Shown: positions 246-62,220, counted from the first letter of the stretch. The stretch: DNA of 64,000 bases from Candidatus Omnitrophota bacterium (GCA_026387175.1 JAPLME010000008.1:149883-213882); one strand, 5' to 3'. Made by a program: numbers and translations. The notes: generated by a model from the letters alone, not told the origin.

Positions 246-1018
246 TAATCGCGGAATGTAAGAATATAAAGAAGAGTTTTCCGATAAAACGCGGTTATCT
301 GCAGGATGAGATTGGCAGGGTGACGGCTGTAGATGGCGTATCGCTCGATATCGGGAAAGGATGTTCTTTCGGCATCGTCGGCGAATCGGGCTCGGGCAAG
401 ACTACGCTCGGCAAGATCATGCTGGGTGTTTTAAAACCTGATTCAGGCGAAGTGAGGGTCTATACCGATAAACTTCAGGTGATATTTCAGGATCCGTACA
501 ATAGTCTCGATCCTAAGATGAAGGTATTCGATATACTTGCGGAAGGACTGATCTTAAAAAAAGAGACTGATCAAATATCAAAGAGGGTAGAGGATATCAT
601 GGACATCATAAAGTTGCCAAAGCCCGCCCTCCATAGATATCCCCACCAGTTTTCCGGCGGTGAACGTCAGAGGATAGCTATAGGAAGAGCTCTCATTACA
701 GAGCCTGAATTCATAGTATGCGATGAGCCTGTATCGAGCCTTGACGTTACGATCCAGCTGCAGATATTAAGGCTGCTTAAAGACGTTCAGAAACGATTTA
801 ATATAACCTACCTATTCATAAGCCATGACCTGCGGGTCGTGCGCTTCATCTGCGACCGCGTTGCCGTCATGAAAGACGGCAAGATTGTAGAAGAGGGAAG
901 CGCCTCCGACATATATTCCCGCCCGGCGCACCCATACACTAAGCTGCTCCTCTCATCCGTTCTCCACATCTACCCCCGAAAAATCTCCTGGGGAAACGTG
1001 GGCGAAAATATCGTATAG
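242..1018 (+). CDS. ABC transporter ATP-binding protein (OppF/DppF-like)
   Basis: Walker A GESGSGKTT, signature FSGGERQRIAIGRAL, Walker B FIVCDEPVSSLD, H-loop SHD. The last codons (GENIV*) coincide with the outer TIR of a Y-type repeat. Confidence 0.85.
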   Translation: MIIAECKNIKKSFPIKRGYLQDEIGRVTAVDGVSLDIGKGCSFGIVGESGSGKTTLGKIMLGVLKPDSGEVRVYTDKLQVIFQDPYNSLDPKMKVFDILAEGLILKKETDQISKRVEDIMDIIKLPKPALHRYPHQFSGGERQRIAIGRALITEPEFIVCDEPVSSLDVTIQLQILRLLKDVQKRFNITYLFISHDLRVVRFICDRVAVMKDGKIVEEGSASDIYSRPAHPYTKLLLSSVLHIYPRKISWGNVGENIV

Positions 1019-6302: not shown

Positions 6303-6480
6303 GATGGATTTTTTGGCTTCGTCAGATGGCAGAACTTTTTGGCACCTTACTGGAGCGACTTTCTAAAATTTCGATACCTATAGGCGGTACAGGCTTCACC
6401 ATCGAAATTTTAGCAACAGCGAGCGAGGAAGCCTATTCCGAGCGAGCGGCAAGCGGAAGCAGGTGCCAAAAGTGAATGCC
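6303..6480 (+). repeat. Y-type repeat, truncated copy Y4 (short variant)
   Basis: CAGATGGCAGAACTTTTTGGCACC...AAAATTTCGATACCTATAGGCGGTACAGGC...ATCGAAATTTTA...GAGCGAGCGGCAAGCGGAAGCAGGTGCCAAAAGT. Outer arms TTTTGGCACCT/AGGTGCCAAAA are complementary. Homologous to 15625-15780. Confidence 0.5.
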
Positions 6481-6511
6481 ATCACGTTGCAGCCAAAAAA
6501 TCAAACGAGAT

Positions 6512-7862: not shown

Positions 7863-7971
7863 CTTTTATGCAATCCCATGATACACTTCTTTACAAGTTT
7901 ATGTAAGCTTCTATAGTTTATATATTCTGGTATATTTTATACTTTTTTATACGGACTTATAATATAATTAT

Positions 7972-10900
7972 ATGCACTTTAAATCCCTAGAGCTGGTGGG
8001 TTTTAAGTCTTTTGCCGAAAAGACGAAGCTTAATTTTGAGCCGGGCGTTACCGCTGTAGTCGGCCCCAATGGCTGCGGAAAATCCAACATAGCTGACTCT
8101 ATCCGCTGGGTGCTCGGCGAGCAGTCAGCAAAAAGCCTGCGGGCGTCCAATATGCAGGACGTCATCTTCAACGGCACCGACACCAAAGATCCTATCAATT
8201 TTGCCGAAGTATCCTTGACATTTTCCAATGAAAAAAGAACTCTCCCGATAGACTACGATGAAGTCACGATAACCCGCCGCGTATTCCGCTCAGGCGATAG
8301 CGAATATCTTTTAAACAAAACCCCCGTAAGGCTGAAAGACATAGCGGACCTTCTGATGGGAACCGGTATAGGCACGGAGAGCTATTCCATTATCGAGCAG
8401 GGAAAGATGGACCTGATACTCAGCTCGAAGCCGGAGGACAGGCGCTATGTATTCGAAGAGGCCAGCGGCATCACTAAATATAAATCCAAGAAGAAAGAGG
8501 CCCTGCGCAAACTCGAGCAGACCGAGCAGAACCTGCTGCGCATAAATGATATTATAACGGAAGTGAAACGCCAGATAAACTCTATCGAGCGCCAGGCGAA
8601 GAAGGCGGAACGCTATAAGGTCGATTACGAAAAGCTGAAGGATATGGAGGTCAAGCTCACCTGCCGCGAGTACAAGGGCCTGAAGATGCAGGAAGCCACG
8701 TTTACCGTAGAGAATGAAGATACGAAGGCAAGAGAGAGGGACCTTTCCGGTGAAATAAACGCGATCGCCCTGAAGATTTCCGAAGAAAGGCAGGCGCTGA
8801 ACGAGGTAAATAATAAGATTTTGAATTTAAGGAACCGCTCTTCGGAGATCTCGAATTCGCTCGATATGAATAAGCACAAGATCGAAATAGATAAAGAGAG
8901 GATCGAGGAGGCCCGCATATTACAGGAGGGCCTGAACAGAGAGATCAAATCGGCAACCGATAAGATAAATAACGCTAAGGAGCAGGTAGGTAAATTAAAG
9001 ATCGATCTTGACAGGGCGGTATCGGAGAGGGCCCTGAAGCAAAAGACCGTTGAAGAACATGAACTGCTTTTATCGAATATCGCCAGAGAGCTGGAGGAGA
9101 CCGAAGAGAAGGCCAAGGTCTTCAAGATACAGATAGTGGAATTCCTGGCAAAAGAGACACATATAAAGAACGACCTGATAAAGATAGGCGCCGATGTTCA
9201 GAACAGGAAGATGCGTCAGCGGAGGCTCGAGATAGAAAAAGATGAGGTGGGGAAGGAGCTGGAGTCCACTGAGGGAGCCTTGTCGGGTGTGCTGGTGGAA
9301 TTTAAGACCATAGAAGACAAAGTCGTCGGACTCAAGACGGGCCTCGAGGCGAAGAAGCTTGCTAATGAAGAGGTCATATCCGCGATAGAGAATATAGAAT
9401 CGGATATAGCCAGGGAAGAAAACAATAAAGCCGCGACAAGGTCGAAGATCGAAATGCTGGAAGAGAGCCTGAAGACGCACGAGGGATTTAAGAGCGGGGT
9501 GAAGAACCTGCTCATTAAGGCCAATGAAGATAAGGTTTCATTCAGCGGGGTCCTCGGGGTATTGGCGGATATAATAAAAGTCGAAAAAGGTTACGAAGAG
9601 GCTGTAAGTACGCTCCTGGGCGATGACGCTCAGCTGATAATTACGGAAAATGATAATGACATAGTGAGGGCTATCGAATATTTGAAGAACGGCAGGTTTG
9701 GTAAAGCAAGCTTTGTCTCTCTTGAAACATTGAGGAAGGTAAGCCGAAGCGCGGATCTCCGGCTTAACGAAGCTCTCCATAAGCCATTGAGCAGTTTTGT
9801 TCATATAGATGAGCGGCTTAAACCGGTTATTGAATATTTCTTCGTAAATTCTTATCTGATAGAATCTGTAGAAGAAGGCATGAGGAGTTGCGGCGCCAGC
9901 CCCGCGGTATTTGTAACAAAGTCCGGGCACATGTTCGATAATTGCAAGGTTTCGGGCGGAAGCGCGAGCGAAGGCGAAGAGTCGCTGCTGATAGGGCGCA
10001 GACAGAGACTGGATGACCTGAGGAACGAGCTTAGGACCTGTGAAGAGAGAGGCATAGCGCTTGTTGCCGTCAGGGATGAAAAGAAATCGGCCGGCAGGGC
10101 CCTGGAGACCGAGATAGAGTCCACAGATTCCGCGCTAAGGCAGGAAGAGATAAATTACGCCAATGCCAAAACTAAAAAGGACGCTCAGGAAGAAGCGGGC
10201 AGGAAACTCGCGGACGAAATGTTCCTCCTTGGATCGGAGCTGGATGAGGTGAATCAGATCATAAACGATCTCACCGCGAAGGGCACGGCGCTGAATATTG
10301 AGCTGAATAAGATCGAGGTTGAAAAGACCTCGATGCAGGAATTTATAGATCGATCCCAGGCTTTTATACTTGATAAAAAGTCTGAACGGGAGAGGACCGC
10401 GCTGGAGATGGCGACATTGAGAGCCGAGGTCCAATCGCAGGAAAAGGAAGAGGAGAATGTCCGTAATAATCTCAAGTCGCAGGAAGCCATAGTTTTCGAA
10501 CTCGAGGATACATTATATGCCAAGGACGCCTTAGCGAAGGAATCGAGCGAGAAAGCTAAGTCTCTGGAATGCGAGATAGGTAATCTGACCAGCCAGAACC
10601 AGATATTAGAAAATGACCTAAAGATCCTTAATGAGGAATCCTCCGCCGTAGAGGGCTCGAGGGCCGATATCGGGGCGAGGCTCAATATGGACGAGACGCA
10701 GTTGAAAGAAAAAGAGGCGCAGCTGGAGACCTTCCGTAACCTTATAAGGGATCTTGACGTAAAATTGACAGAGCTTAATTTCAAGAAGTCGAATTTAAAG
10801 GACAGGATGCTTCAGGCGCACAAGTTCGACCTTGAGATGACACCTGTGGAACTTGATGAGCAGATAGACTGGGAATCGATAAGCGTGCAGGTCTCGGAGC

Positions 10901-13304: not shown

Positions 13305-13308
13305 GAAG

Positions 13309-13445
13309 GGGTCTTCGGGGTGGGGTGACCTGCATTGGCGGGAATTCCCCGGCCGGCGGTAAAGCCCGCGAGTCCCTGTGTCCGAGGGGCAGAACTTGTG
13401 AGATTCAAGTGCCGACAGTACAGACTGGATGGTAGAAGACGCCTC
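13309..13445 (+). ncRNA. FMN riboswitch (RFN element) aptamer
   Basis: Conserved RFN blocks are present: CTTCGGGGTGGGGTGA...GGGAATTCC...GGCGGTAAAGCCCGCGAG...CCGAGGGGCAGA...GAGATTCAAGTGCCGACAGTACAGACTGGATGGTAGAAGA. It sits in the ribBA leader. Confidence 0.85.
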
Positions 13446-14802: not shown

Positions 14803-15267
14803 ATGGTAAATGTGATAAAGGCGGATTTGGTTGCAAAGGGGAAGAAGTTCGCGATAACCATATCGCGGTTCAACGAGTTTATATCATCGAAGCTTCTTGA
14901 GGGATGCATCGACACACTTAATCGTCATGGTGTCCAGGAGAATTCGATAGATGTGGTGTGGGTGCCGGGGGCATTCGAAATACCGATGATCGCGCAAAAG
15001 TGCGCGAAGTCAAAAAAGTACGACGCGGTTATATGCCTAGGTACGGTCATAAGAGGCGCGACGCCTCATTTTGAGTTTGTGGCGAGCGAGGCCGCCAAAG
15101 GTGTCGCGAAGATATCGCTCGATACTAATGTGCCGTGCATATTCGGCATCATCACAGCCGATAATATCGAGCAGGCGATCGAGAGGGCTGGCACGAAGGA
15201 CGGCAACAAGGGCCGCGACGCGGCGCTCTCGGCCATCGAGATGGCTAATCTGTACGCGAAGCTATAG
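14803..15267 (+). CDS. ribH: 6,7-dimethyl-8-ribityllumazine synthase
   Basis: 154 aa with the lumazine synthase signature VPGAFEIP. Confidence 0.9.
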
Positions 15268-15850
15268 ATTTTTCGGCTGCAAGCGATAGTCTAGAGCCTT
15301 CGGGCACTTGCTTTCGCTTGTTGCGGTTTATCCCTCGCGGGGCGGTGCTTCGCAGGGACGCGAAATTTCCCCTGCGAGGAAATTTCGCTCGGAAAGATCG
15401 CTCGCTCTTTTTGGCATACAGGTATACCAGGGCCAAAAATCCGTGCCCGCTCGCGACTTTCGACGCCCTGCTTAGCACCGCCCCCGCGAGGGATAACTGA
15501 GTAACGAAGAAGATAGTGCCCAAAAGCTCCCTGCACTATGCAAGGAGCCGAAAAAATTACTGGGGGTAGTGAGCAGAGAGTGAGATTGTAACAGTGAACG
15601 GAGGCGAAAATATCCTTCAGTACGTCAGATGGCGGAACTTTTGGGCGATGCTGAAGCGACTTTATAAAATTTCGATACCTATAGGCGGTACAGGCTTTAT
15701 CATCGAAATTTTATCAAGAGCGAGCGAGGAAGCCTATTCCGAGCGAGCGGCAAGCGGAAGCATTGACCGAAAGTAAACGCCGGACTGAGATGTTTCTAGG
15801 ATATTTTCGCTGTAGTGAGGATATTTTCAGTGCGAACCATAACTTCGGTT
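15268..15850 (+). repeat. composite structured repeat: X-type palindrome (X1, ~15268-15570), linker, Y-type element (Y3, ~15603-15850)
   Basis: X1 has an 18-29 bp TIR GGTTTATCCCTCGCGGGGCGGTGC/GCACCGCCCCCGCGAGGGATAAC around the core palindrome GCGAAATTTCC-cctgcga-GGAAATTTCGC. Y3 has outer TIR GGCGAAAATATCC (15603) pairing with GGATATTTTCGC (15810) and a nested hairpin AAAATTTCGATA...TATCGAAATTTT. Homologous to 24094-24657. Confidence 0.6.
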
Positions 15851-15912
15851 TAGGTCCAAACTGGAATTTGAAGGATGCTGTTGCCGTAGTTGCAAATGAA
15901 TGAGGAGGGAAG

Positions 15913-16332
15913 ATGAGGAAGCGAACAGTCGCGAGAGAATCTGCGCTTAAGATACTATATGCGGTCGATATTACGAAAGAAGCGCCGGACAAATGCATAG
16001 ATAATTTTTGGTTGTCGCAGGATAAAGTGGAAAAAGAGGTGATGAGTTACGCTAACGATATTGTCCTTGGCGTCTGCCATAATAAAGCGCGTATCGATAA
16101 GGTGGTATCGGAATGCGCGACGAATTGGGAGCTCGACAGGATGGCGGTTATAGACCGCAATATACTACGATTAGGTACGTACGAGCTTATATTTATGGAA
16201 GAGGTCCCGCCGAAGGTCGCCATCAATGAAGCGATCGATATCGCAAAGAGATACGGCGATAAAGACTCCGGAAAATTCGTGAACGGTGTGCTCGACAAGA
16301 TCAGTAAGGAAAAGAGAAAACCGTCCGAATGA
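15913..16332 (+). CDS. nusB: transcription antitermination factor NusB
   Basis: 139 aa with typical NusB fold residues (ARESALKILYAVD, DRNILRLGTYEL). Confidence 0.85.
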   Translation: MRKRTVARESALKILYAVDITKEAPDKCIDNFWLSQDKVEKEVMSYANDIVLGVCHNKARIDKVVSECATNWELDRMAVIDRNILRLGTYELIFMEEVPPKVAINEAIDIAKRYGDKDSGKFVNGVLDKISKEKRKPSE

Positions 16333-19481: not shown

Positions 19482-19558
19482 CGGGGCGTAGCGCAGCTGG
19501 CTAGCGCGCTTGGTTCGGGACCAAGAGGTCGGCGGTTCAAATCCGCCCGCCCCGACCA
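19482..19558 (+). tRNA. tRNA-Pro (anticodon CGG)
   Basis: Cloverleaf folds. Acceptor CGGGGCG/CGCCCCG, D-arm GCGC-AGCTGGCTA-GCGC, anticodon stem CTTGG/CCAAG with loop TTCGGGA, T-arm GGCGG-TTCAAAT-CCGCC, and encoded CCA. Confidence 0.9.
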
Positions 19559-23202: not shown

Positions 23203-24089
23203 AGACATTAGTGGATGAATTTTTAAATTATCTTACGGTCGAAAGGGGCCTTAGCAAGAATACTATATCCGCTTACGGGACGGATCTCAATCATTTTACG
23301 GAGCATCTCGGGGCGCATGGTATCAGCGATCCCGATCATGTGAAGAGGCAGGATATCATGGATTATATGCTGAAGCTCAAAGACAACAAGATATCGAGCA
23401 ATTCCATATCCAGGGCGCTTGTGGCGATAAAGATGTTCTATAAATTCCTGGTGAGGGAACGATTGGCAAAAGACGATGTCGCCGGAGTCCTGGAATCGCC
23501 AAAACTTGTACGGCCCTTACCCAATGTCATGGGAATGCAGGAGGTTGAAAAACTGTTGGCCGCCCCCGACGTGCGGGGATGGATGGGTATAAGGGACAGG
23601 GCGGCGCTTGAACTCATGTACGCGACCGGGATGAGAGTTTCGGAGCTTGTCGATCTCACTATGGATGGCCTGAATTTAGACGTGGGATTTATAAAATGCC
23701 GGGGGAAAGGTGATAAGGAACGCATTGTGCCTATCGGCAAAAGCGCGAAGGAAGCGATCGAGAGGTATCTCGATAAAGTACGTCCGAAACTCCAGAAGAA
23801 GGACGCCCAGGACCAGCACCTCTTTTTGTCAAGGCTCGGCAAGAAGGTCTCGAGGGTATCGTTCTGGAAGATGATAAAAACAAATGTGAAGCTTGCCCGC
23901 ATAAAGAAAGATGTGACGCCGCATACTCTCAGGCACTCATTTGCTACGCACTTATTGGAGCGCGGGGCGGATCTGCGCGTCGTCCAGGAGATGCTTGGAC
24001 ATGCGGATATATCGACGACTCAGGTATATACGCATATAAATAAAGAGCGGCTGAAGTTAATACACAGGCAATTTCATCCGCGGGCGTAA
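23199..24089 (+). CDS. tyrosine recombinase XerC/XerD family
   Basis: 296 aa. N-terminal SAM-like domain and C-terminal catalytic RHSFATHLL...LGHADISTTQVYTHI (R-H-R-Y). Confidence 0.8.
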   Translation: MKTLVDEFLNYLTVERGLSKNTISAYGTDLNHFTEHLGAHGISDPDHVKRQDIMDYMLKLKDNKISSNSISRALVAIKMFYKFLVRERLAKDDVAGVLESPKLVRPLPNVMGMQEVEKLLAAPDVRGWMGIRDRAALELMYATGMRVSELVDLTMDGLNLDVGFIKCRGKGDKERIVPIGKSAKEAIERYLDKVRPKLQKKDAQDQHLFLSRLGKKVSRVSFWKMIKTNVKLARIKKDVTPHTLRHSFATHLLERGADLRVVQEMLGHADISTTQVYTHINKERLKLIHRQFHPRA

Positions 24090-24093
24090 ATTT

Positions 24094-24657
24094 TTCGGAT
24101 TCTATAGTTTGTCCCTTGCGTGTGGGTGCTTCGCGGGGACGCGAAATTTCCCCTGCGAGGAAATTTCGCTCGGAAAGATCGCTCGCTCTTTTTGGCAAGT
24201 AAGCGTACCAGGGCCAAAAATCCATGCCCGCTCGCGACTTTCGACGCCCCGCTCAACACCCACACGCAAGGGACTGCTGAGTAGTCCGAAAAATTTACTG
24301 ACAGGGTGAGTAGAGAGTGAGATTGGGATGGTGAGCGGAGGCGAAAATATCGCATGATGGATGGCGCCCCAGGTGATATCCTCAGGCAGCGGAACTTCTG
24401 CGGGAAGCCTGGAGCGACTTTCGTAAAATCTTGATACCTATAGGCGATATACCAGGACAATGAAACTGCGCGACAGTTTTTTACGTATAGGCAGGTTCAT
24501 TGGCCATCAAGATTTTACAACAGCGAATTTACATGCCTAATGTAAATCTGCGACAAGCGGAAGGCTTACCGCAGAAGTTTCGATGCTGTAGGAGAAATGA
24601 AGGGGGCGAGCCCCTGAGGATATTTTCGCCGTAGTGAGGATAGACGTAACTTCGGAA
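24094..24657 (+). repeat. composite structured repeat: X-type palindrome (X2, ~24094-24300), linker, Y-type element (Y2, ~24344-24657)
   Basis: X2 has an 18-bp perfect TIR GTCCCTTGCGTGTGGGTG (24111) pairing with CACCCACACGCAAGGGAC (24257) around the same core as X1. Y2 is near-identical to Y1 (1044-1250). Confidence 0.6.
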
Positions 24658-43478: not shown

Positions 43479-43515
43479 AAGGGGCCGTGATAATTGTCAC
43501 GGCCCCTTATTTTAT
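43479..43515. terminator. bidirectional intrinsic terminator between convergent rpsA and the 43512-44039 gene
   Basis: AAGGGGCCGTGA-taat-TGTCACGGCCCCTT with flanking A/T runs. Confidence 0.5.
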
Positions 43516-44039
43516 TTCCGATCGAAGAACGGATTCTTGCCGGTAACGCTTAAGGGAATACCGAGCGCCTGTTTTACGGCGCCGGAGAATAGCTTCAGGT
43601 CGAGCGCAGCCCTGCCGATCGAATACATCAGGCGGTTATCTATATGGAACCGGCTTGCCAGACTTGCGGAGGAGCTTACCGCTATGCCGAGATCTATCGA
43701 ATTGTAGGCGCAGATGCCTTTGGTTTTTGAGAGTTCGCCGCATGTCGGGTAACCGCAAAATCCGCAATCCAGCCCCGCGGGGTTTGCTCTGACGCCGATG
43801 ATTACCAGAGCAGGGGAGGCCGCGATAGAATTCGCGTCGCGTTCGAGGCTGGGCCTATTCTCGGTTTTCGATATTTCTTTCATTTTGTTTATCAGTTTCG
43901 TCTTCGTCGTGTCGTCATCAATGATCATTATTTCAATATTGTCTATGCCCCTGGTCTTAGGAGAGGTCCTTGCCGCGGCCGTCATAAGGGCCGCAACATG
44001 CGACGCGGCTTCTCTCTCCGCCTGATCCGATCTTTTCAT
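43512..44039 (-). CDS. hypothetical protein with ferredoxin-like Cys motif (possibly DUF2148/COG4739-like)
   Basis: Motif CGFCGYPTCGE. The family assignment is from memory only. Confidence 0.4.
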   Translation of the reverse strand: MKRSDQAEREAASHVAALMTAAARTSPKTRGIDNIEIMIIDDDTTKTKLINKMKEISKTENRPSLERDANSIAASPALVIIGVRANPAGLDCGFCGYPTCGELSKTKGICAYNSIDLGIAVSSSASLASRFHIDNRLMYSIGRAALDLKLFSGAVKQALGIPLSVTGKNPFFDRK

Positions 44040-44065
44040 TTGGCACCCCTTTCGTAATAAAAAAT

Positions 44066-45640
44066 TTAAATTCCATTACGCGACGCAAGTATCGCGTTTG
44101 ATATATCGGAGCTCCTTAGAACTCGCAGATCATATTTTTTTATGATCTCCTTGTCAGGCTCGAGCAGATAGTAGAAATCATATATTCCGTCAGGGCCCTG
44201 CCGGGTCGTGAAATCGATCCAGTACGTCTTATCCTTTATTATATAGTAGTTCGTTGCGGGTTCAAAAAGCCAGTTGATGCCTATCCTGTATTTATTTCCT
44301 CCGGGTATATTATTTTTTGTCAGGTCGTAGATCTTCCGCATGACGTTCTTTGTGTCGGCATCATATTTCCATATGTGAAAATGGGTGATATTCATACATA
44401 AAATTCCGTGCAGGACCGCTGCTGAAATAATTACAAAAAAGAACCCGTTCATTATCGCCCTCCAAGCGCTATGGGCGGAGGAAGAGAGAGAGGACCAAAA
44501 AGATATCACGAGCACTAAATAGAGCGGGACCAGGTATATGGCCGCTCTATCAATAGCGTATTTTATATGGAAGAATGTAAATTGAATATTCATCGAAACG
44601 ATTATCAGCAACAGGAGCATCGCGAGCCATAATGTATTCGTGTTATTCTTGTTACCTGGGCGCCCATTGATACCTATCGATATCGCGACGATGAGAGCTA
44701 TGACATATAGCATAAATATGATGATTTTTATGACATGCAGCGCTTCCGGCCCTGCATAGCTTTTACCGTAGAGGACGCACTCCAGGACTGTGGTCACAGT
44801 GTTTGCCCAGAAGCCTGTTGTGCCGCCATAATCTGTGATAAAAAGCTTGATCCTGTCCATGACGGGAGCGCTGTAAATAAAACGCAATACTATCAGGATG
44901 CACGCGGCTGGAATCAGGAATCCCATGGCCAGTGTTTTGAAGGCTTTGACCATGGAGTTTTTCGCCGCGCGAATCATTTCATATATTTCGGATATGCCGA
45001 TTAACGCCATTATCGCGAATAGGACATTCGCAAAAGCCAGGTTTGATAACACGGAAAACCCGAGCATGGACAGGGTTAAGATATTGCAGCGAGGACGCAG
45101 GCTATCGCAAGCGTAATTTCTTTTCAAGAAAAAGTATAGGCCGAACATCAGGAAGCCGACCCCCAGAGCGTATCCCCTGGCGCAGGAAAAGAAGTCCAGT
45201 AAAAACGGGTTTGTCGTCAGCAGCAAAAATCCGAGCAGGTACTTGGCTTTTTTAAAAAAAAGGTCAAGTATTTTGAGAGACGCGACCAGGTAAAGGATAT
45301 GTCCGATCAGCGCCGGGATCCTGATAACAAATTCATTGTTCCCGAGCACTTCGCAGAAGAATTTAATGAATAACGTATTGAGCAGATGATTATTCGAACT
45401 GATAGCTCCCGCGTGTAAGAATATGTTTCGTATGCTTCCCTGCGCATGAATGAGATAGGTGAGCGCTTCATCGTGGCTTATCGATATGACGCCTGCTCGA
45501 AAGCATGTATAGCAGAAAAGCGCGCAGGCAATTATGAATGCCGTGAATTGATACCGGTCGGCGTTGTACCAAGGGCCGGGCCGGATGCCGGACATAGATT
45601 CATCTACGGTTTTTTGTACGGCGTGTTTCTTTCTTTTCAT
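44066..45640 (-). CDS. polytopic membrane protein, putative GT-C-fold glycosyltransferase (PMT/ArnT-like)
   Basis: About 10 predicted TM helices and an early-loop DE motif (SHDEALTYL). A C-terminal soluble domain. Confidence 0.45.
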   Translation of the reverse strand: MKRKKHAVQKTVDESMSGIRPGPWYNADRYQFTAFIIACALFCYTCFRAGVISISHDEALTYLIHAQGSIRNIFLHAGAISSNNHLLNTLFIKFFCEVLGNNEFVIRIPALIGHILYLVASLKILDLFFKKAKYLLGFLLLTTNPFLLDFFSCARGYALGVGFLMFGLYFFLKRNYACDSLRPRCNILTLSMLGFSVLSNLAFANVLFAIMALIGISEIYEMIRAAKNSMVKAFKTLAMGFLIPAACILIVLRFIYSAPVMDRIKLFITDYGGTTGFWANTVTTVLECVLYGKSYAGPEALHVIKIIIFMLYVIALIVAISIGINGRPGNKNNTNTLWLAMLLLLIIVSMNIQFTFFHIKYAIDRAAIYLVPLYLVLVISFWSSLSSSAHSAWRAIMNGFFFVIISAAVLHGILCMNITHFHIWKYDADTKNVMRKIYDLTKNNIPGGNKYRIGINWLFEPATNYYIIKDKTYWIDFTTRQGPDGIYDFYYLLEPDKEIIKKYDLRVLRSSDISNAILASRNGI

Positions 45641-47075
45641 CTTTCCCTTCTAATATAGGATGTATGATCTCTCCCGGCGGCGAGACCATCATGAAGTAGA
45701 TAAAAATAATAGTCGGCCATAGCTGCAGGACCAGGCGGTTTAAGGTGGTGCCTATATGCCACTTGAGATCGTATGGGCTAGTAAGATATATTGCGCAGTA
45801 ACCGGTAAGCATAATTAATACCGCGAGTATCGATATAAGAACCGCTGTCCGGTCTTCCTTTCTGATCGATATGCCGGCAAGGAATAAATATACTAAAAGG
45901 ACGGGGACCGCGCCTGTGAAGAGAAACCCGAGCCGGAAAAATTCGTTAGTGAACCCCGATATTATAAAGTAATACCTGGACGGGTCGGCCAGTTTTTCTG
46001 CCCAGTGCCCGGATATTTGGGCCGCCAGAATATCTTTGTTGGGCGGCGCCAGGAAGAGCTTGAAATATATGATAATTAAAAGGATAGGACTTGAGCCGGC
46101 GAGAAACGCCGCCATTTGCCGTAAGCTCCCGCGGATGCCGATGATCGGAACGGTCACGAAGATACGGGAAATAATGACTGCCGCTAAAAAGAACAGGCCC
46201 TCGTTTTTTGTCCAGGCTGCGAATGCCGTTATTAAGCCGGCGAGCACCAGGAATCCATTATTTTTGCCGGGCAGTCTCTCATTGAGGTATAAGATAACGA
46301 TACTCGCTAAGATAAAAAATGATAGCGGCACATCGGCGTATTGAGACGCTCCATGCAGGATGAATGACGGTGTGCCCAATAAGATGAAAGCGCCTAAGAG
46401 GCCCTGTTCTCTCCCCCGCAAGAGGGAGAGCGACGATTTCAATAGCCCGATAGTGGCAAATGTGAAGACCAGCGCGATAGCGGCCGGTGCGAGAGTCTGA
46501 CATTTACCCATATAGGCCCAGCTCCTGGCTATCATACCTGGCAGCAGAAGAGGGTAATCCGGGTTTGTCCAGCTTATGACATTGGTAAAGGCATCTTTCC
46601 AGGCGGCCAGTCCACGGAAAATGAACCGTGCCCTCATGTTCCATATGGCCCATGCGTCCCATCCACCATGCGGCTGGCAAGCCGATTTTGATATGAAGGA
46701 AGATATCGCGAATGCGGTTGCGCACAAAAACGCCGCTGTTAGAACATAATAGACCCTATTGGAAAAGATCTGGTTTTCGGCCCTCCGCAGCATCAGGCAT
46801 TCTTGAGCCTCCTGTTTTAACGCGCCGAATAATACCGCTCCCAGCGCGGCGCACAGCAGCAGTTCCGCGATTACGAACGACGCAAAACCAAACCGGTAAG
46901 CGCTCATAACGAGCCATAAAAAGAATAGGGATGAGGATATTCCTATTCCTATGCCTACCGCAAGGGCTAGCTTGAGAGACAGGTTAGTTATCAGCGGTTT
47001 TCGGCAGGGCCAGGCGATGAATACCAGCAGAAGCCCCATTGCCAGCGATATTATTAGTGACGCAAAAAGTATCAT
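45600..47075 (-). CDS. polytopic membrane protein (possible GT-C-like glycosyltransferase)
   Basis: Many hydrophobic segments and a Lys/Arg-rich C-terminal tail. In tandem with the preceding membrane protein. Confidence 0.4.
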   Translation of the reverse strand: MILFASLIISLAMGLLLVFIAWPCRKPLITNLSLKLALAVGIGIGISSSLFFLWLVMSAYRFGFASFVIAELLLCAALGAVLFGALKQEAQECLMLRRAENQIFSNRVYYVLTAAFLCATAFAISSFISKSACQPHGGWDAWAIWNMRARFIFRGLAAWKDAFTNVISWTNPDYPLLLPGMIARSWAYMGKCQTLAPAAIALVFTFATIGLLKSSLSLLRGREQGLLGAFILLGTPSFILHGASQYADVPLSFFILASIVILYLNERLPGKNNGFLVLAGLITAFAAWTKNEGLFFLAAVIISRIFVTVPIIGIRGSLRQMAAFLAGSSPILLIIIYFKLFLAPPNKDILAAQISGHWAEKLADPSRYYFIISGFTNEFFRLGFLFTGAVPVLLVYLFLAGISIRKEDRTAVLISILAVLIMLTGYCAIYLTSPYDLKWHIGTTLNRLVLQLWPTIIFIYFMMVSPPGEIIHPILEGKDEKKETRRTKNRR

Positions 47076-47509
47076 GAGGGCGCATCCTCATTACGTAACA
47101 AAAAGACGCCGTTTCCGGCATTCATGATAACGCTGAATCTGCCATATGCGCTTATATCTGGAAGCGCGGAGGAGTGAAAATTGCCTATCACGATACCTCT
47201 GCGGGGATTATTATCAACTACGACCGGAGCGACGGCATACTGTGTCAGATAATATTCCGCCTGAAGATTGCCGTAAGCCATGACGGCTTCCGGGGGAGCT
47301 TCCGTAATATACCCTACTGCGCCCCGGGCCGGTAACGCCGCCCTGACCGCGGCAAAGCGTTCTTCGTATTGAGTGATTTGATCGCGAGGGCCTGTATTAA
47401 TCCGCTCGTTTCCGGTTTTTGTGAACAACTCGGCGCAGGTAATAAGAGAGAGGATGATAATGATAAAAATTCCGGCTTTAAGTGGCGCGAACCTCATTGT
47501 ATATCCCAT
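47072..47509 (-). CDS. hypothetical membrane-anchored/exported protein
   Basis: N-terminal hydrophobic anchor GIFIIIILSLITCAELF. Overlaps the upstream gene by 4 nt. Confidence 0.35.
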   Translation of the reverse strand: MGYTMRFAPLKAGIFIIIILSLITCAELFTKTGNERINTGPRDQITQYEERFAAVRAALPARGAVGYITEAPPEAVMAYGNLQAEYYLTQYAVAPVVVDNNPRRGIVIGNFHSSALPDISAYGRFSVIMNAGNGVFLLRNEDAPS

Positions 47510-56820: not shown

Positions 56821-59800
56821 ATGTTTGTTAAAAGAACAAAAATAATATCGGCGTTTCTTGTAGTGGCATTTTTTGTCCAGGATTTATCATGGGCATATCC
56901 GGACCATTTTGCCTATGACCGCCCTTCCAATAATAAATTGGCGCCGGCGCCTTTCAGCGAAAGAGTATCTCCTGAAGACATAACGAAATCTCTCATCTTA
57001 GTAATAGAGCAAAATCACCATGTTTCAATAAAGAGCCTTGTGCTTGATGGTGTAGAAGCCATACTGAATGAATATCAGGAATTCCTGAAGCAAAATAGCA
57101 TAAGTTTTTTAAAAAAGCCCAGAGAAATTAGAATAAATATTAATCCAAATATTATTTTGCGCTATACCGATCATGCCATGCCGCTAGATGGTATATCTGG
57201 CTTCAAGGTCGGATCTCAAGAAAAGACAGGGGCTCTTGTAAGGCAGATTTTAATAAGAATTGAAAAGAGACCCACGCTACGTTCAAGGCAGCTTCAGCTT
57301 GATTTTGGATCGCCCGCAAAAGAAACCGTCGCAGAAGGAGAAAAAACGGCAGAAACTCCTGTAGCCCCTGCAACGCAGGGAGAAATTAAGAATAAACCCC
57401 GTGTATCTATTATGCTGTTTCAGGATATCGCAAGACTGGATTCAAAGATAACGAATGCCGTTATATCGTCTATGAATATGCTGGAAGATAGAATGCACCG
57501 CTCGCGTGTGGTTATGGGGGCAATAGATGTTTTACGGGATGATATTATCGGATATGGCCATGTCAGGGCCGATGCCTTTGAACGGTTTTCGAAAAAAGTA
57601 TCAGGTGTTTTGGACAGATGGATAATGAGCGATAAAGGGAAGGAGACAATCCGCGGCAGACTGGCCAAAATAAGCCTCAAGATAAACGAGAGGGACGATT
57701 TATTGAAAGGCATAGATATATCCTATTATGGTTTGGCAAGAGAGCTGAAAGGCGAAAAAGGCGCGCAGCAAATTATATTCCTGCTGCTTAGTATAGAGGC
57801 GGGGCTTAGGGAAGTGGCGGAAGCGATGGATGAGCACAGCAGGCTGAAATCGAGATTTAATGTAATTGCGGCTGACTTGAAAGCGATTCGTAAGTGGATG
57901 AGCATAAGAGGCGAACGCCCAGGAAAGGATTTAACAAGTTGCGAAAAGGCGTTGAAAGCGATGGCGAAACATGCGCCTCTCCAGCTTCATGATCAAATTT
58001 TGAATTTAACGGATAAAATAGCAGTTTTAAAGCCATTCGTAGAAAGTGTATGGGAAGTTAAGCCGCCTGCCGGATCGGTACCCGGCGTATTTAAATATTT
58101 ATGCTCGCCAGATATCCAATCGTTTGAAAGACCTCCTCGCGCCGATGAGGTTGCCGATAACCTCGGTCGGTCGTATGATACGATAAGGCGCGATCTGTGG
58201 GACCTCTATTACCATCTTCATCTTCTCGATAAGGTAGACGTTAGGGAATCGGGCAGGGATGCTCGCTATTATGTCCCCGAACGCGTTAAGAATAAGTATG
58301 ATGACATATACCCGATCCTGAACCAGTTCATCGGTAAAAAACTCCGTCCCACAATAAAAGATCTCGAAAGCGCATATAGGGCTATTATCAATCTTATAGG
58401 TGTCCGCGATCCAACCACAGGCAAATTCAATTTGGTCTCTATATCAAAACGCACTGATTACAAAGGCAGATTTAATATTAATATCTTCGGCGATGGAAAA
58501 ATCCAGTTTAATATCGGTACCGGCTATTCGTTAAAAAATATTGAGCTCATCCCGTTAACCGATAACTGGCGGGAAGGCTTTGAAGTCTACCATCAGAGTA
58601 ATCTGATAGGTACGTGCGATCCATCCACCGGCGAATTTAGCCCGATTCAAGAGGTCCGGAAACCGGGCGAAGACCGCCGGTTCAATCTGGACAGAGTTCG
58701 CTATATTCTCCTCGATGCAGGCTACGCTAGCGGTGGTGCGAATAGGGAAATCAGGATCATTGCCTTTGACGGTTTCGACTGGACTAGCGGTTTTAAGGTC
58801 TATCATCTGGACAGAGAAATTGCCTCTTATGATAAAAAGCGCAATGTTATGATCGGCATGTCTGTCGCCGGAAGATTGAGACCACCAGGCGCGCGGGCTA
58901 GGGTGCTGCTACAAATGCAAATTCCGAATAAAGACACCAATAAAAACGGAAGGGCGTTTACAGCTGAAATAAGTAATTTTATAATTAAACATCGGTCGAT
59001 TCTTGGCACGAGAGAAAAAGATATAGAGACTATCCTTGACGAAGTAGGTCTTAATATCATGGAGCATGGCAATGGCGGCGAGATAATGGTAGAAACTGAA
59101 AAATCTGCGGATGGCAGATTACGATTAAAGATAATCGGGAAAGATAAAGGGAGCGGTCTTCCGGCCTCGCCGGACGAGCTTGTAAAAACTAGCCTTGCCT
59201 CGCGGAAACGCTTTGAACGCGAACCTGATGCAGATGATAAAGACATTATGGTGAGAGGGCGGGGGTTTTCGAGAATAGCACTCGGTCCTGACAGTGTAAC
59301 TATTGAATATCAGGGGAAGAGGTTTGTCAGGTTTACGGATAATAAGGATGCCGGCTCGTGGTTTCGTGAAGAAAACGTCGCAGGCAGTAGCGCAAAGGGT
59401 ACAAATTTTGAGCTTAAATTTGAGTTGGGACGCGAACTCACCTCATGGGGGCCTGAAGCGGAGACGCTTGCTGATATACATGATCTGTTTAACATTAAAA
59501 TTCCATCTCGAACAAATGATAATACAAAAATATTATTATCCGAAAATCTGTTTATAAAAAATAGTAATGAGACAGAGCTGATTCAGGTCAGGATAGCGCT
59601 CGCGTCGCTCCTCAATAGCGGAAATATTGCAATTATGAAACCGGATGAGATGAGAAGGGCCGCGATGAATCGGCATGTCTCAAAGGACAAACTTGCGACA
59701 GTTTTTACCGAAGAAGATTTCAATAATAAAGGGATATGGAATGGTTGTGACAAAGAAGCATCGCTCAGGTCAAGTGTCCTGATACTTGGTGACAGGCTAA

Positions 59801-60069
59801 TGGGCAATAATTATCTGTATCTGGAAGGCGTTATAGGTCTTGCACGGGCGATGATGGTGAATAACAAGTATGCGGTTAGAAAATACTATGATTTGATATC
59901 GGGTACTGTTATAGATAATGAGATGATGAAATTATTAAATGAGGATGATCAAAATAATCTTTCTTTCGCTATCAGGGCCGTACTAAGATTTAAGCCCATA
60001 ACCAGGACCGATCCGGAAGACTTGAATGAGCTAAAGATCAGGATGGAGAAGTTCTTAATCGCCGCTTAA
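56821..60069 (+). CDS. large hypothetical membrane-anchored protein (1082 aa) with a GHKL/HATPase_c-like ATP-binding motif; AT-richer than its surroundings
   Basis: N-terminal hydrophobic anchor IISAFLVVAFFV. Around residues 735-790 it has an N-box-like NIMEHGNGGEIMVE and G1-box-like IIGKDKGSGL. No overall family recognised. Its own promoter is TGGTATACT (extended -10) at ~56806. Confidence 0.6.
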   Translation: MFVKRTKIISAFLVVAFFVQDLSWAYPDHFAYDRPSNNKLAPAPFSERVSPEDITKSLILVIEQNHHVSIKSLVLDGVEAILNEYQEFLKQNSISFLKKPREIRININPNIILRYTDHAMPLDGISGFKVGSQEKTGALVRQILIRIEKRPTLRSRQLQLDFGSPAKETVAEGEKTAETPVAPATQGEIKNKPRVSIMLFQDIARLDSKITNAVISSMNMLEDRMHRSRVVMGAIDVLRDDIIGYGHVRADAFERFSKKVSGVLDRWIMSDKGKETIRGRLAKISLKINERDDLLKGIDISYYGLARELKGEKGAQQIIFLLLSIEAGLREVAEAMDEHSRLKSRFNVIAADLKAIRKWMSIRGERPGKDLTSCEKALKAMAKHAPLQLHDQILNLTDKIAVLKPFVESVWEVKPPAGSVPGVFKYLCSPDIQSFERPPRADEVADNLGRSYDTIRRDLWDLYYHLHLLDKVDVRESGRDARYYVPERVKNKYDDIYPILNQFIGKKLRPTIKDLESAYRAIINLIGVRDPTTGKFNLVSISKRTDYKGRFNINIFGDGKIQFNIGTGYSLKNIELIPLTDNWREGFEVYHQSNLIGTCDPSTGEFSPIQEVRKPGEDRRFNLDRVRYILLDAGYASGGANREIRIIAFDGFDWTSGFKVYHLDREIASYDKKRNVMIGMSVAGRLRPPGARARVLLQMQIPNKDTNKNGRAFTAEISNFIIKHRSILGTREKDIETILDEVGLNIMEHGNGGEIMVETEKSADGRLRLKIIGKDKGSGLPASPDELVKTSLASRKRFEREPDADDKDIMVRGRGFSRIALGPDSVTIEYQGKRFVRFTDNKDAGSWFREENVAGSSAKGTNFELKFELGRELTSWGPEAETLADIHDLFNIKIPSRTNDNTKILLSENLFIKNSNETELIQVRIALASLLNSGNIAIMKPDEMRRAAMNRHVSKDKLATVFTEEDFNNKGIWNGCDKEASLRSSVLILGDRLMGNNYLYLEGVIGLARAMMVNNKYAVRKYYDLISGTVIDNEMMKLLNEDDQNNLSFAIRAVLRFKPITRTDPEDLNELKIRMEKFLIAA

Positions 60070-61930: not shown

Positions 61931-62220
61931 GTGAAAATATTCCTGGTGGATATATCTGATGGCGGAACTTTCGGCTCGATGCTGGAATAATTGCAGTCAT
62001 TTTACGGGTGACGCAAGATCCAGCCTTGAGGGGCGCAGCGTAGGATGGGTTCAATATAGCTACCCGCCTGGATGGACTGATATTGTAAACCCTACGCAAG
62101 CACCGAAAGGCGATCTTGCGGCAGGACCCGTAAAATGATGCTGTTCAGCGGAAGCATTGACCGAAAGTAAACGCCGGACTGAAGATTCCGATATAATATT
62201 TTCGCCGTAGTGAGGAACTA
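61931..62220 (+). repeat. Y-type structured repeat, copy Y5 (variant with nested hairpins)
   Basis: Outer TIR GGTGAAAATATTCC pairs with AATATTTTCGCC. Nested TIR GGCGGAACTTTCGGCTC pairs with GACCGAAAGTAAACGCC. Inner hairpins TCATTTTACGGGT...ACCCGTAAAATGA, CGCAAGATC...GATCTTGCG and GCGTAGGATGGGTT...AACCCTACGC. 3' tail GTAGTGAGGA. Confidence 0.55.

Follow-up and report, generated by a model that had tools for sequence, protein, structure and literature searches.

A covarying nested hairpin repeat that turns over in intergenic spacers of Omnitrophota chromosomes

Two copies of a nested hairpin element between housekeeping genes

Little is known about genome dynamics in the Omnitrophota, a phylum of very small bacteria that is abundant and uncultured. 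We analysed a stretch of 64,000 nucleotides from a Candidatus Omnitrophota bacterium (GCA_026387175.1 JAPLME010000008.1:149883-213882), referred to below as the window, in which two copies of a palindromic element, X1 and X2, had been predicted from the sequence. Both copies are present where the original prediction had placed them. X1 (15268-15557, + strand) begins directly 3' of the ribH stop codon (TAG, 15265-15267) in the ribH-nusB spacer, and X2 (24088-24298, + strand) overlaps the stop codon TAA of xerD. In total, the 64 kb contain two X copies and five composites of a second hairpin type, termed Y, all of them intergenic. This X/Y family takes up approximately 3% of a housekeeping region that is densely packed apart from these repeats.

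X1 is a series of hairpin layers on the + strand. The outermost stem, P0, consists of a 5' arm ATTTTTCGGCT (15268-15278) and its partner AGCCGAAAAAAT (15546-15557). It is followed by an outer shell layer in which 15279-15324 pairs imperfectly with 15498-15545, an extra stem layer that X2 does not have. The next stem, P1 (15325-15348 with 15475-15497), evolves fast but is always paired, and it encloses a conserved core (15349-15474) with 96% identity to the core of X2 and 80-99% identity to copies from other genomes. Within this core we located P2 (15353-15357 with 15466-15470), P3 (15360-15388), P4 (15390-15401 with 15453-15465), the P5 hairpin (15408-15439) and two conserved unpaired strands, TCGCTC and TCCGTGCCCGCTC. 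P3 is a perfect palindrome, GCGAAATTTCC-CCTGCGA-GGAAATTTCGC. The pattern GCGAAATTTCC-N7-GGAAATTTCGC has exactly two matches in the window and none expected in shuffled sequences; the second, in X2 (24141-24169, + strand), lies one position downstream of where it had been reported (24140-24168).

In X2, the P0 arms GTAAATTTTTCGGA and TCCGAAAAATTTAC (24086-24099 with 24285-24298) are complementary at 14 of 14 positions, which confirms the predicted pairing of the distal arms. P1 of X2 (24111-24128 with 24257-24274) is a perfect 18-bp stem, as described, whereas the X1 arms, at the positions given, form a 15-bp perfect block plus one bulged C and are thus not perfectly complementary. Folding as RNA and as single-stranded DNA (ssDNA) had been proposed as a check, and both copies were far more stable than shuffled sequences. 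For RNA, z-scores for the + and - strands were -8.8 and -11.2 in X1 and -8.2 and -9.2 in X2; for ssDNA they were -8.3 (X1) and -10.0 (X2).

The arms of the two copies had been thought to differ completely in sequence. This was an overstatement, as the arms are homologous: the P1 arms are approximately 69% identical in pairwise alignment, compared to 96% for the core of approximately 125 nt. Of 18 P1 pairs, read by eye, 13 are the same in X1 and X2, and the five that differ are all compensated. One pair of P2 also differs in a compensating manner (A-T in X1, G-C in X2). Furthermore, the repeat does not end at 15570 and 24300 as assumed before. The similarity between the loci runs on via a purine-rich linker (TACTGGGGGTAGTGAGCAGAGAGTGAGATTG...; 15558-15602, + strand, conserved at X2 and at the related loci L085 and L086) to another structured module, Y, at 15603-15823 and 24341-24642.

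Conservation of the fold across 18 copies

A search of one genome per species for the P3 palindrome revealed X homologues in three Omnitrophota metagenome-assembled genomes (MAGs) and in one MAG labelled Planctomycetia. A metagenome scan returned 78 loci, about 20 of which carry true X homologues. These include an X1-type copy (L038) and an X2-type copy (L063), found in other samples and at other loci. A consensus was built with RNAalifold on 18 distinct copies, representing at least eight lineages, from Omnitrophota genomes and metagenomes. As the palindrome was required by the search, the invariance of P3 across these copies follows from the search design.

The consensus comprises five helices, namely P1, P2, P3, P4 and a short inner helix, with P2, P3 and P4 meeting at a three-way junction. 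P1 is a sequence-variable stem of the same length across the family, with a G-rich 5' arm and a distal GGG/CCC clamp that is G-C in 14-15 of the 18 copies. P2 reads GCGGGG/CCCCGC. The sequence of P4 varies (GGAAAGATCGC/GCGACTTTC in the window, AAAAATTTC/GAAATTTT in L002, GTTTTTTT/AAAAAAAC in L001), and this helix encloses the conserved unpaired strands TCGCTC and CCRTGCCCGCTCG together with the small T5GGC...GCCA5 hairpin P5, the length of which differs among copies.

Of all cells in the 38 consensus pairs, 97.5% are paired, compared to 31-51% in slid controls with the 3' partners shifted by one to three columns. Double changes occur in 18 pairs (6-11 in slid controls) and in 70 cells (at most 24 in slid controls), and none of 500 shuffles reached the observed covariation. 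All nine P1 pairs and eight P4 pairs covary. The contrast between core and arms seen in the window recurs between L063 and L032, with 99% identity in the core and 56% in the arms. Given this degree of pairing and covariation in 18 copies, the X fold is conserved well beyond the two copies noticed first, and the central claim of the original prediction, that pairing is kept despite sequence change, holds for the family. The covariation sits in the inner stems, not in the terminal stems to which it had been ascribed; the outermost layers are a shared shell.

Compensated changes could also arise mechanically, if intrastrand template switching or quasipalindrome correction erased mutations in one arm or mirrored them in the other. 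In line with such arm-to-arm homogenisation, three of the six compensated differences between X1 and X2 are of the transversion type (G-C to T-A twice, C-G to G-C once) and have no wobble intermediate, P1 of X2 is perfect over 18 bp, and both strands fold, as a DNA-level palindrome should. The correction would have to be non-uniform, however, as the outer layers of X1 contain many mismatches and bulges while P1 is clean. Several conserved asymmetries persist, namely the 1-nt bulge in P1, a TTC/TCA internal loop and a bulged G or A in P4, and single-step intermediates (G.T, A.C) are found in several copies. Homogenisation also leaves the conserved unpaired junction strands unexplained, and we regard it as rather improbable. 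The X family constitutes a natural data set for the question of whether hairpin complementarity is kept by selection or by arm-to-arm copying.

Presence, absence and replacement at orthologous sites

The synteny around ribH is conserved among relatives, whereas the ribH-nusB spacer is not; it ranges from 16 to 670 nt and differs in content. In the window it measures 645 nt and holds X1 and Y1. The locus L085, with a RibH protein 95% identical to that of the window, has a 552-nt spacer with a homologous shell around an inverted Y core, and L086 (RibH 92% identical) has 670 nt with the same termini and linker but other cargo. In L087, the RibH protein of which is identical to that of L086, the spacer shrinks to 109 nt and contains an unrelated small palindrome. 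L088-L090 (RibH 90% identical) carry another small palindrome in 126 nt, and in L091 (RibH 86% identical) the spacer is 16 nt long without any repeat, the site reading TATAG followed directly by ACG.

A similar picture emerged downstream of xerD. The spacer of 587 nt in the window (X2 and Y2) corresponds to 63, 54 and 170 nt in relatives with XerD proteins that are 93%, 85% and 83% identical, respectively, while a relative with 90% identical XerD has still other hairpins at this site. In L092, TAAATTTTTTGG is retained at the "empty" xerD site. We considered whether the short spacer of this locus could be the remnant of a deleted X2-Y2 pair and rejected this, as global alignment gave only pieces of 8-12 nt that were judged compatible with chance.

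As insertions or replacements, X elements turn over among closely related strains and are not fixed at their loci. XerD itself is conserved and present with or without X in relatives, and the absence or replacement of X at orthologous sites identifies the XerD gene beside X2 as a bystander. Since the X/Y family lies within conserved operons (ribH-nusB, asd-truA, ligT-recA) and differs there between near-identical strains, it represents a main source of micro-diversity.

Other unrelated small palindromes occupy the same intergenic sites in relatives (L087 861-971, L088 10471-10598, L094 6892-7337). Examples are CTAACCTGG...CCAGGTTAG and CAGGGT-rich repeats. Several families of hairpin repeats thus appear to populate the intergenic spacers of Omnitrophota.

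Two Logan contigs that encode exact window proteins, L097 and L099, begin approximately 221 nt upstream of recA and approximately 121 nt upstream of nth. According to offset arithmetic only, these starts fall inside Y repeats of the window. As the contigs start near repeats, the X/Y elements are a possible cause of assembly breaks.

The Y module and the exchange of shells and cargos

The Y module was found in several settings, both next to X and, at three positions, without it. Y1 (15603-15823, + strand) has an outer stem GGCGAAAATATC/GATATTTTCGC and an inner multi-helix junction, and at the X2 locus the linker leads into Y2, which has a type-b Y core (24299-24642 including the linker, + strand). 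A composite without X (976-1290, + strand) retains a solo 3' P0 arm, CCGAAAAAT, and a linker remnant, both within the C-terminal codons of the upstream ABC-ATPase open reading frame (ORF). A type-a Y core lies between asd and truA (6303-6496, + strand) in a shell with a T-run and an A-run (ATTTTTTGGCT...AGCCAAAAAAT), and an element with a Y shell and different cargo lies between ligT/thpR and recA (61934-62218, + strand). The module itself was traced to 1000-1290 and 6325-6483 of the window, to L085 (4059-4245 and 8255-8450, both - strand), and to L002 and L032, and relative to its flanking genes it is found in either orientation. The Y consensus has 35 pairs, 17 of which covary, and describes a conserved multi-helix structure with the junction strands CTGGAGCGACTTT, CAACAGC and GRCAAGCGGAAG.

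Shells and cargos have been recombined with each other, and the Y cargo, at least, is also inverted. L085 has an outer stem and shell homologous to those of X1, but in place of the X core they enclose a Y core with 95.6% identity on the opposite strand. Within the window, two shell arms of 36 nt (15753-15788 and 62147-62182) are 100% identical although they are 46 kb apart and surround unrelated interiors, a Y core and a cargo of 165 nt, respectively. Their identity suggests that dispersed copies recently exchanged cargo or were subject to gene conversion. Two X copies (L044 3962-4211, - strand; L063 5460-5690, + strand) carry an extra palindrome (...GTAGCTGACGTTT...AAACGTCAGCTAC...) nested in the P5 loop, and thus a third hairpin family inside X. 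Together, the identical shell arms and the palindromes in P5 loops indicate a modular "hairpin within hairpin" system, the cargos of which are exchanged and flipped.

These observations raise the question of whether the complementary arms belong to X at all. A small mobile core might enter the apex of existing palindromes and thereby inherit complementary halves, P1 included. Such a derivation of the arms from target or host DNA, which had been named as the scenario that would speak against selection on the hairpin, is essentially right for the outer layers: the extra shell of X1 is homologous to the L085 shell with its inverted Y core, the 36-nt shell arms surround unrelated cargos, and the P5 loops of L044 and L063 contain additional palindromes. 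It does not hold for P1, which is homologous family-wide in its clamp, its G-rich 5' arm and its length, and in which X1 and X2 share 13 of 18 pairs. We therefore consider it very unlikely that all arms, including P1, are target-derived. The outer layers behave as a host shell, while P1 travels with the core, since its arms are homologous and its pairs largely shared.

Partial X-core segments without P3 (CTCGCTC-hairpin-CCGTGCCCGCTCG) were detected in L029 (approximately 7952-8025) and L067 (3369-3467). The segment in L029 is inverted and lies just downstream of a full X. Near the start of the window (940-1018), an ORF for an ABC-transporter ATPase (242-1018) runs approximately 40 nt into repeat-derived sequence that contains the CCGAAAAAT arm, the linker remnant and GCGAAAATATC. 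Since the frame reads into the repeat, the C-terminal residues of this protein appear to be supplied by it.

The X1 junction strand CGCTCGCTC (15399-15407) is the exact reverse complement of GAGCGAGCG in the inner hairpin of Y1 (15718-15726), and the match extends to 12 nt (TCGCTCGCTCTT). We tested base pairing between X and Y as a conserved interaction and rejected it, as the X2/Y2 pair is without this complementarity, which probably reflects shared ancestry of the modules.

Strand preference and a possible RNA function

Most X copies follow directly after a stop codon and lie inside operons. Among 20 tabulated loci, 18 show a clear sign of skew, and in 14 of these the purine-rich coding strand is also the sense strand of X. 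This raises the possibility that X is a structured RNA selected by the host, such as a novel ribozyme or an intercistronic or 3'-untranslated-region element that serves, for example, as a processing site for RNase III or RNase E, as a stabiliser of mRNA or as a protein sponge. The junction fold and its nucleotides would be kept for the RNA function, and the element would be dispersed in many copies because this function is generic. Functional RNAs typically show covariation combined with unpaired junction strands that are conserved, the copies inside operons would be co-transcribed, and on the sense strand the pair that closes the P3 loop is T-A, A-T or G.T.

Other observations are difficult to reconcile with an RNA function. 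At orthologous sites, very close relatives lack X or have other content in its place, which means that no particular operon needs X, and the sister module, Y, works in either orientation to the flanking genes. The fixed synteny and orientation of a housekeeping or cis-regulatory RNA were not found: X is missing in relatives, the strand preference is a bias, and in L044 an X copy lies antisense between two minus-strand genes. We attempted to determine the strand of action from the ratio of G.U to A.C cells and from folding energies, and abandoned this approach as the results conflicted. A hand tally of the sense-strand helices gave approximately 20 G.U and 12 A.C cells, which favours neither strand. 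In all 18 copies the minimum free energy was lower for the antisense strand, the consensus fold of which was the mirror image without additional helices.

Searches for known signals fit this picture. A scan of the whole window against Rfam 15 at gathering thresholds returned only a flavin mononucleotide (FMN) riboswitch and a tRNA. In a permissive Rfam scan of 15200-15950 the best matches were microRNA-precursor hairpin models, with 23.5 bits against a threshold of 168 bits. X1 and X2 contain no match to an intrinsic terminator and one weak promoter-like match (9/12) each, which is at the level of shuffled sequences. A terminator or promoter role was therefore rejected; moreover, the order of elements in P0, in which a T-run precedes the stem and an A-run follows it, is opposite to that of a terminator. 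Overall, we consider it unlikely that X is a host-selected RNA.

Protein coding and phage origin were examined as well. A 92-amino-acid antisense ORF across X1 matched only two weak hypothetical proteins among 5.8 billion, and coding was rejected because of these few matches, the covarying stems and the varying length of P5. Two scans of viral contigs gave zero matches to X, and a phage origin was likewise rejected.

Comparison with known repeat families

Complete X copies end in (G)TA-AATTTTTCGS...SCGAAAAATT-TA(C), a terminal inverted repeat, and the same 10-nt ends occur in X1, X2, L002, L038, L063, L085 and L086. TA is found on both sides in about six to seven of nine complete copies; as TA is self-complementary, this fits a duplication or a longer palindrome equally. 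The motif SCGAAAAWW is not over-represented in the window (15 matches, 11.3 expected), and 11 of the 15 matches are at repeat loci.

With terminal inverted repeats of 10-14 bp, TA flanks in most copies, a position next to or between genes and presence/absence polymorphism, X resembles miniature inverted-repeat transposable elements (MITEs) that are palindromic and duplicate TA, for example Correia/NEMIS and elements derived from IS630/Tc1-mariner. The long transcribed hairpin, a likely RNase III substrate, is another shared feature. The interiors of such MITEs are normally unconstrained, whereas the interior of X is its most conserved part and covaries, and no parent insertion sequence with matching ends was seen in 632 kb of related DNA.

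Enterobacterial repetitive intergenic consensus (ERIC) sequences, also termed intergenic repeat units (IRU), and bacterial interspersed mosaic elements (BIMEs) are imperfect palindromes built around a central inverted repeat that is conserved, and internal insertions give rise to longer variants; they form mosaics within operons and are co-transcribed. X is likewise palindromic with a conserved central inverted repeat and forms intra-operon module mosaics. There is no sequence relationship, the host phylum is another one, and X has a multi-helix core and nested shells. To our knowledge, inversion of a cargo inside a retained shell is not a described feature of ERIC or BIME.

Palindrome-associated transposable elements (PATEs) derived from IS200/IS605 have asymmetric ends and subterminal hairpins, lack terminal inverted repeats and depend on a TnpA(Y1) partner. 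We rejected this class for X, which folds back symmetrically, has terminal inverted repeats and is accompanied by no TnpA among ten window ORFs and the 632 kb. Integron attC sites have R''/R' core sites (RYYYAAC...GTTRRRY), a gene-cassette context and a nearby intI. An origin of X as an attC or Xer site was rejected, too, since its termini are without R''/R' motifs and its flanks are the syntenic housekeeping genes ribH, nusB, xerD, asd, truA, ligT and recA. The tyrosine recombinase gene beside X2 is a conserved xerD that keeps its syntenic position in relatives without X.

Repetitive extragenic palindromes (REPs), two inverted copies of which form a REPIN hairpin, had been suggested as a comparison for X. 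In REPIN hairpins, compensatory changes on both sides are common (PMC3116915). X shares with REPINs the intergenic location, the multiple copies, the inverted termini that give a long hairpin and the compensatory stem changes. It differs in size (210-290 nt as opposed to approximately 70-110 nt) and in having a conserved centre with a three-way junction, whereas REPINs have conserved ends and a variable spacer. A REP is a palindrome of 20-50 nt preceded by a conserved tetranucleotide, usually GTAG, and the enzyme that mobilises it recognises folded single-stranded DNA (PMC8266576). X ends, by contrast, show GTAA or ATAG plus T5CGS, as in (G)TAAATTTTTCGS or ATAGATTTTTCGG, and this terminal motif is no hairpin in itself. 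The tetranucleotide GTAG itself is present only on the 3' side of the outer stem of Y (CGCCGTAGTGAGG) and not 5' of a REP-like hairpin. Membership in the REP family, with its REP-associated tyrosine transposase (RAYT), an IS200-like Y1 HUH enzyme the gene of which is typically flanked by REPs, is not supported, because X is not a GTAG-preceded palindrome of 20-50 nt and no RAYT was found in the ten window ORFs and the 632 kb searched. The suggested REP- or IS200-like mobile hairpin fits the presence and absence at orthologous sites, but the defining features of REPs were not seen.

Hairpin repeats that repeatedly invade intergenic regions are also known from organelles. The repetitive hairpin-forming elements (RHEs) of sponge mitochondria are reported to do so (PMC2800124). 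X shares this behaviour with organellar RHEs and GC clusters. RHEs differ in being organellar and much simpler hairpins, and they are not known to have a conserved branched core.

Interpretation as a probable mobile nested hairpin repeat

With moderate confidence we interpret X as a non-autonomous mobile, or rapidly turning-over, nested hairpin repeat of Omnitrophota chromosomes that is similar in kind to REPINs, palindromic MITEs and ERIC/BIME mosaics. Among the papers listed by literature searches, none describes such repeats in Omnitrophota. The X family is previously uncatalogued, and it is unusual in that its centre is more conserved than its ends and in that shells and cargos recombine and invert.

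Several points weigh against mobility. No transposase domain, Y1 included, was detected in ten window ORFs, and tblastn over 632 kb of related DNA with RAYT, IS200 and IS608 queries gave no match, which is a weak negative. No pair of a clean empty and a filled site with an unambiguous target-site duplication was found, the TA flanks being palindromic and the L092 site retaining its TAAATTTTTTGG. The centre of X is the most conserved part, in contrast to ordinary MITEs and REPINs, in which it is the ends, and this would suit a host-selected RNA equally. A preference for the coding strand would likewise be expected of an RNA function.

From the outside inwards, X consists of a TA-flanked terminal inverted repeat, optional shell stems, P1 with its GGG/CCC clamp and the conserved core. 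The branched core may serve as the recognition module for the machinery that copies or inserts the element. The stems might remain complementary if copies unable to fold back, as ssDNA during replication or transposition or as RNA, were neither propagated nor tolerated. Given their position inside operons, the elements are probably transcribed together with the neighbouring genes and form long double-stranded RNA stems, which could be processed by RNase III-type enzymes and, as a side effect, influence the expression of these genes. The three-way-junction core offers a handle for finding the responsible enzyme and thus a route to the mechanism of mobilisation.

A more far-reaching possibility, to which we give a low probability, is that the X and Y cores are recognition modules of an as yet undescribed, "loop-invading" mobile system in Omnitrophota. 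Branched ssDNA or RNA would enter the apical loops of hairpins or be exchanged between them, resulting in Russian-doll elements with swappable or invertible cargo and involving an enzyme class new to such elements. Included in the same low estimate is the option that X represents a new class of catalytic or protein-binding RNA.

Further features of the window

The FMN riboswitch (13307-13444, 90.1 bits) is located upstream of ribBA, as expected for a riboflavin operon, and the tRNA lies at 19482-19555. The only sizeable block of minus-strand genes in the window spans 43512-47509 and has a lower GC skew. Three of its four ORFs (524, 491 and 145 amino acids) are without a Pfam match, and the fourth encodes a DUF2148 protein. 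Another ORF without a Pfam match, of 1082 amino acids (56821-60069), is found in the part of the window with the lowest GC content (0.43-0.44).

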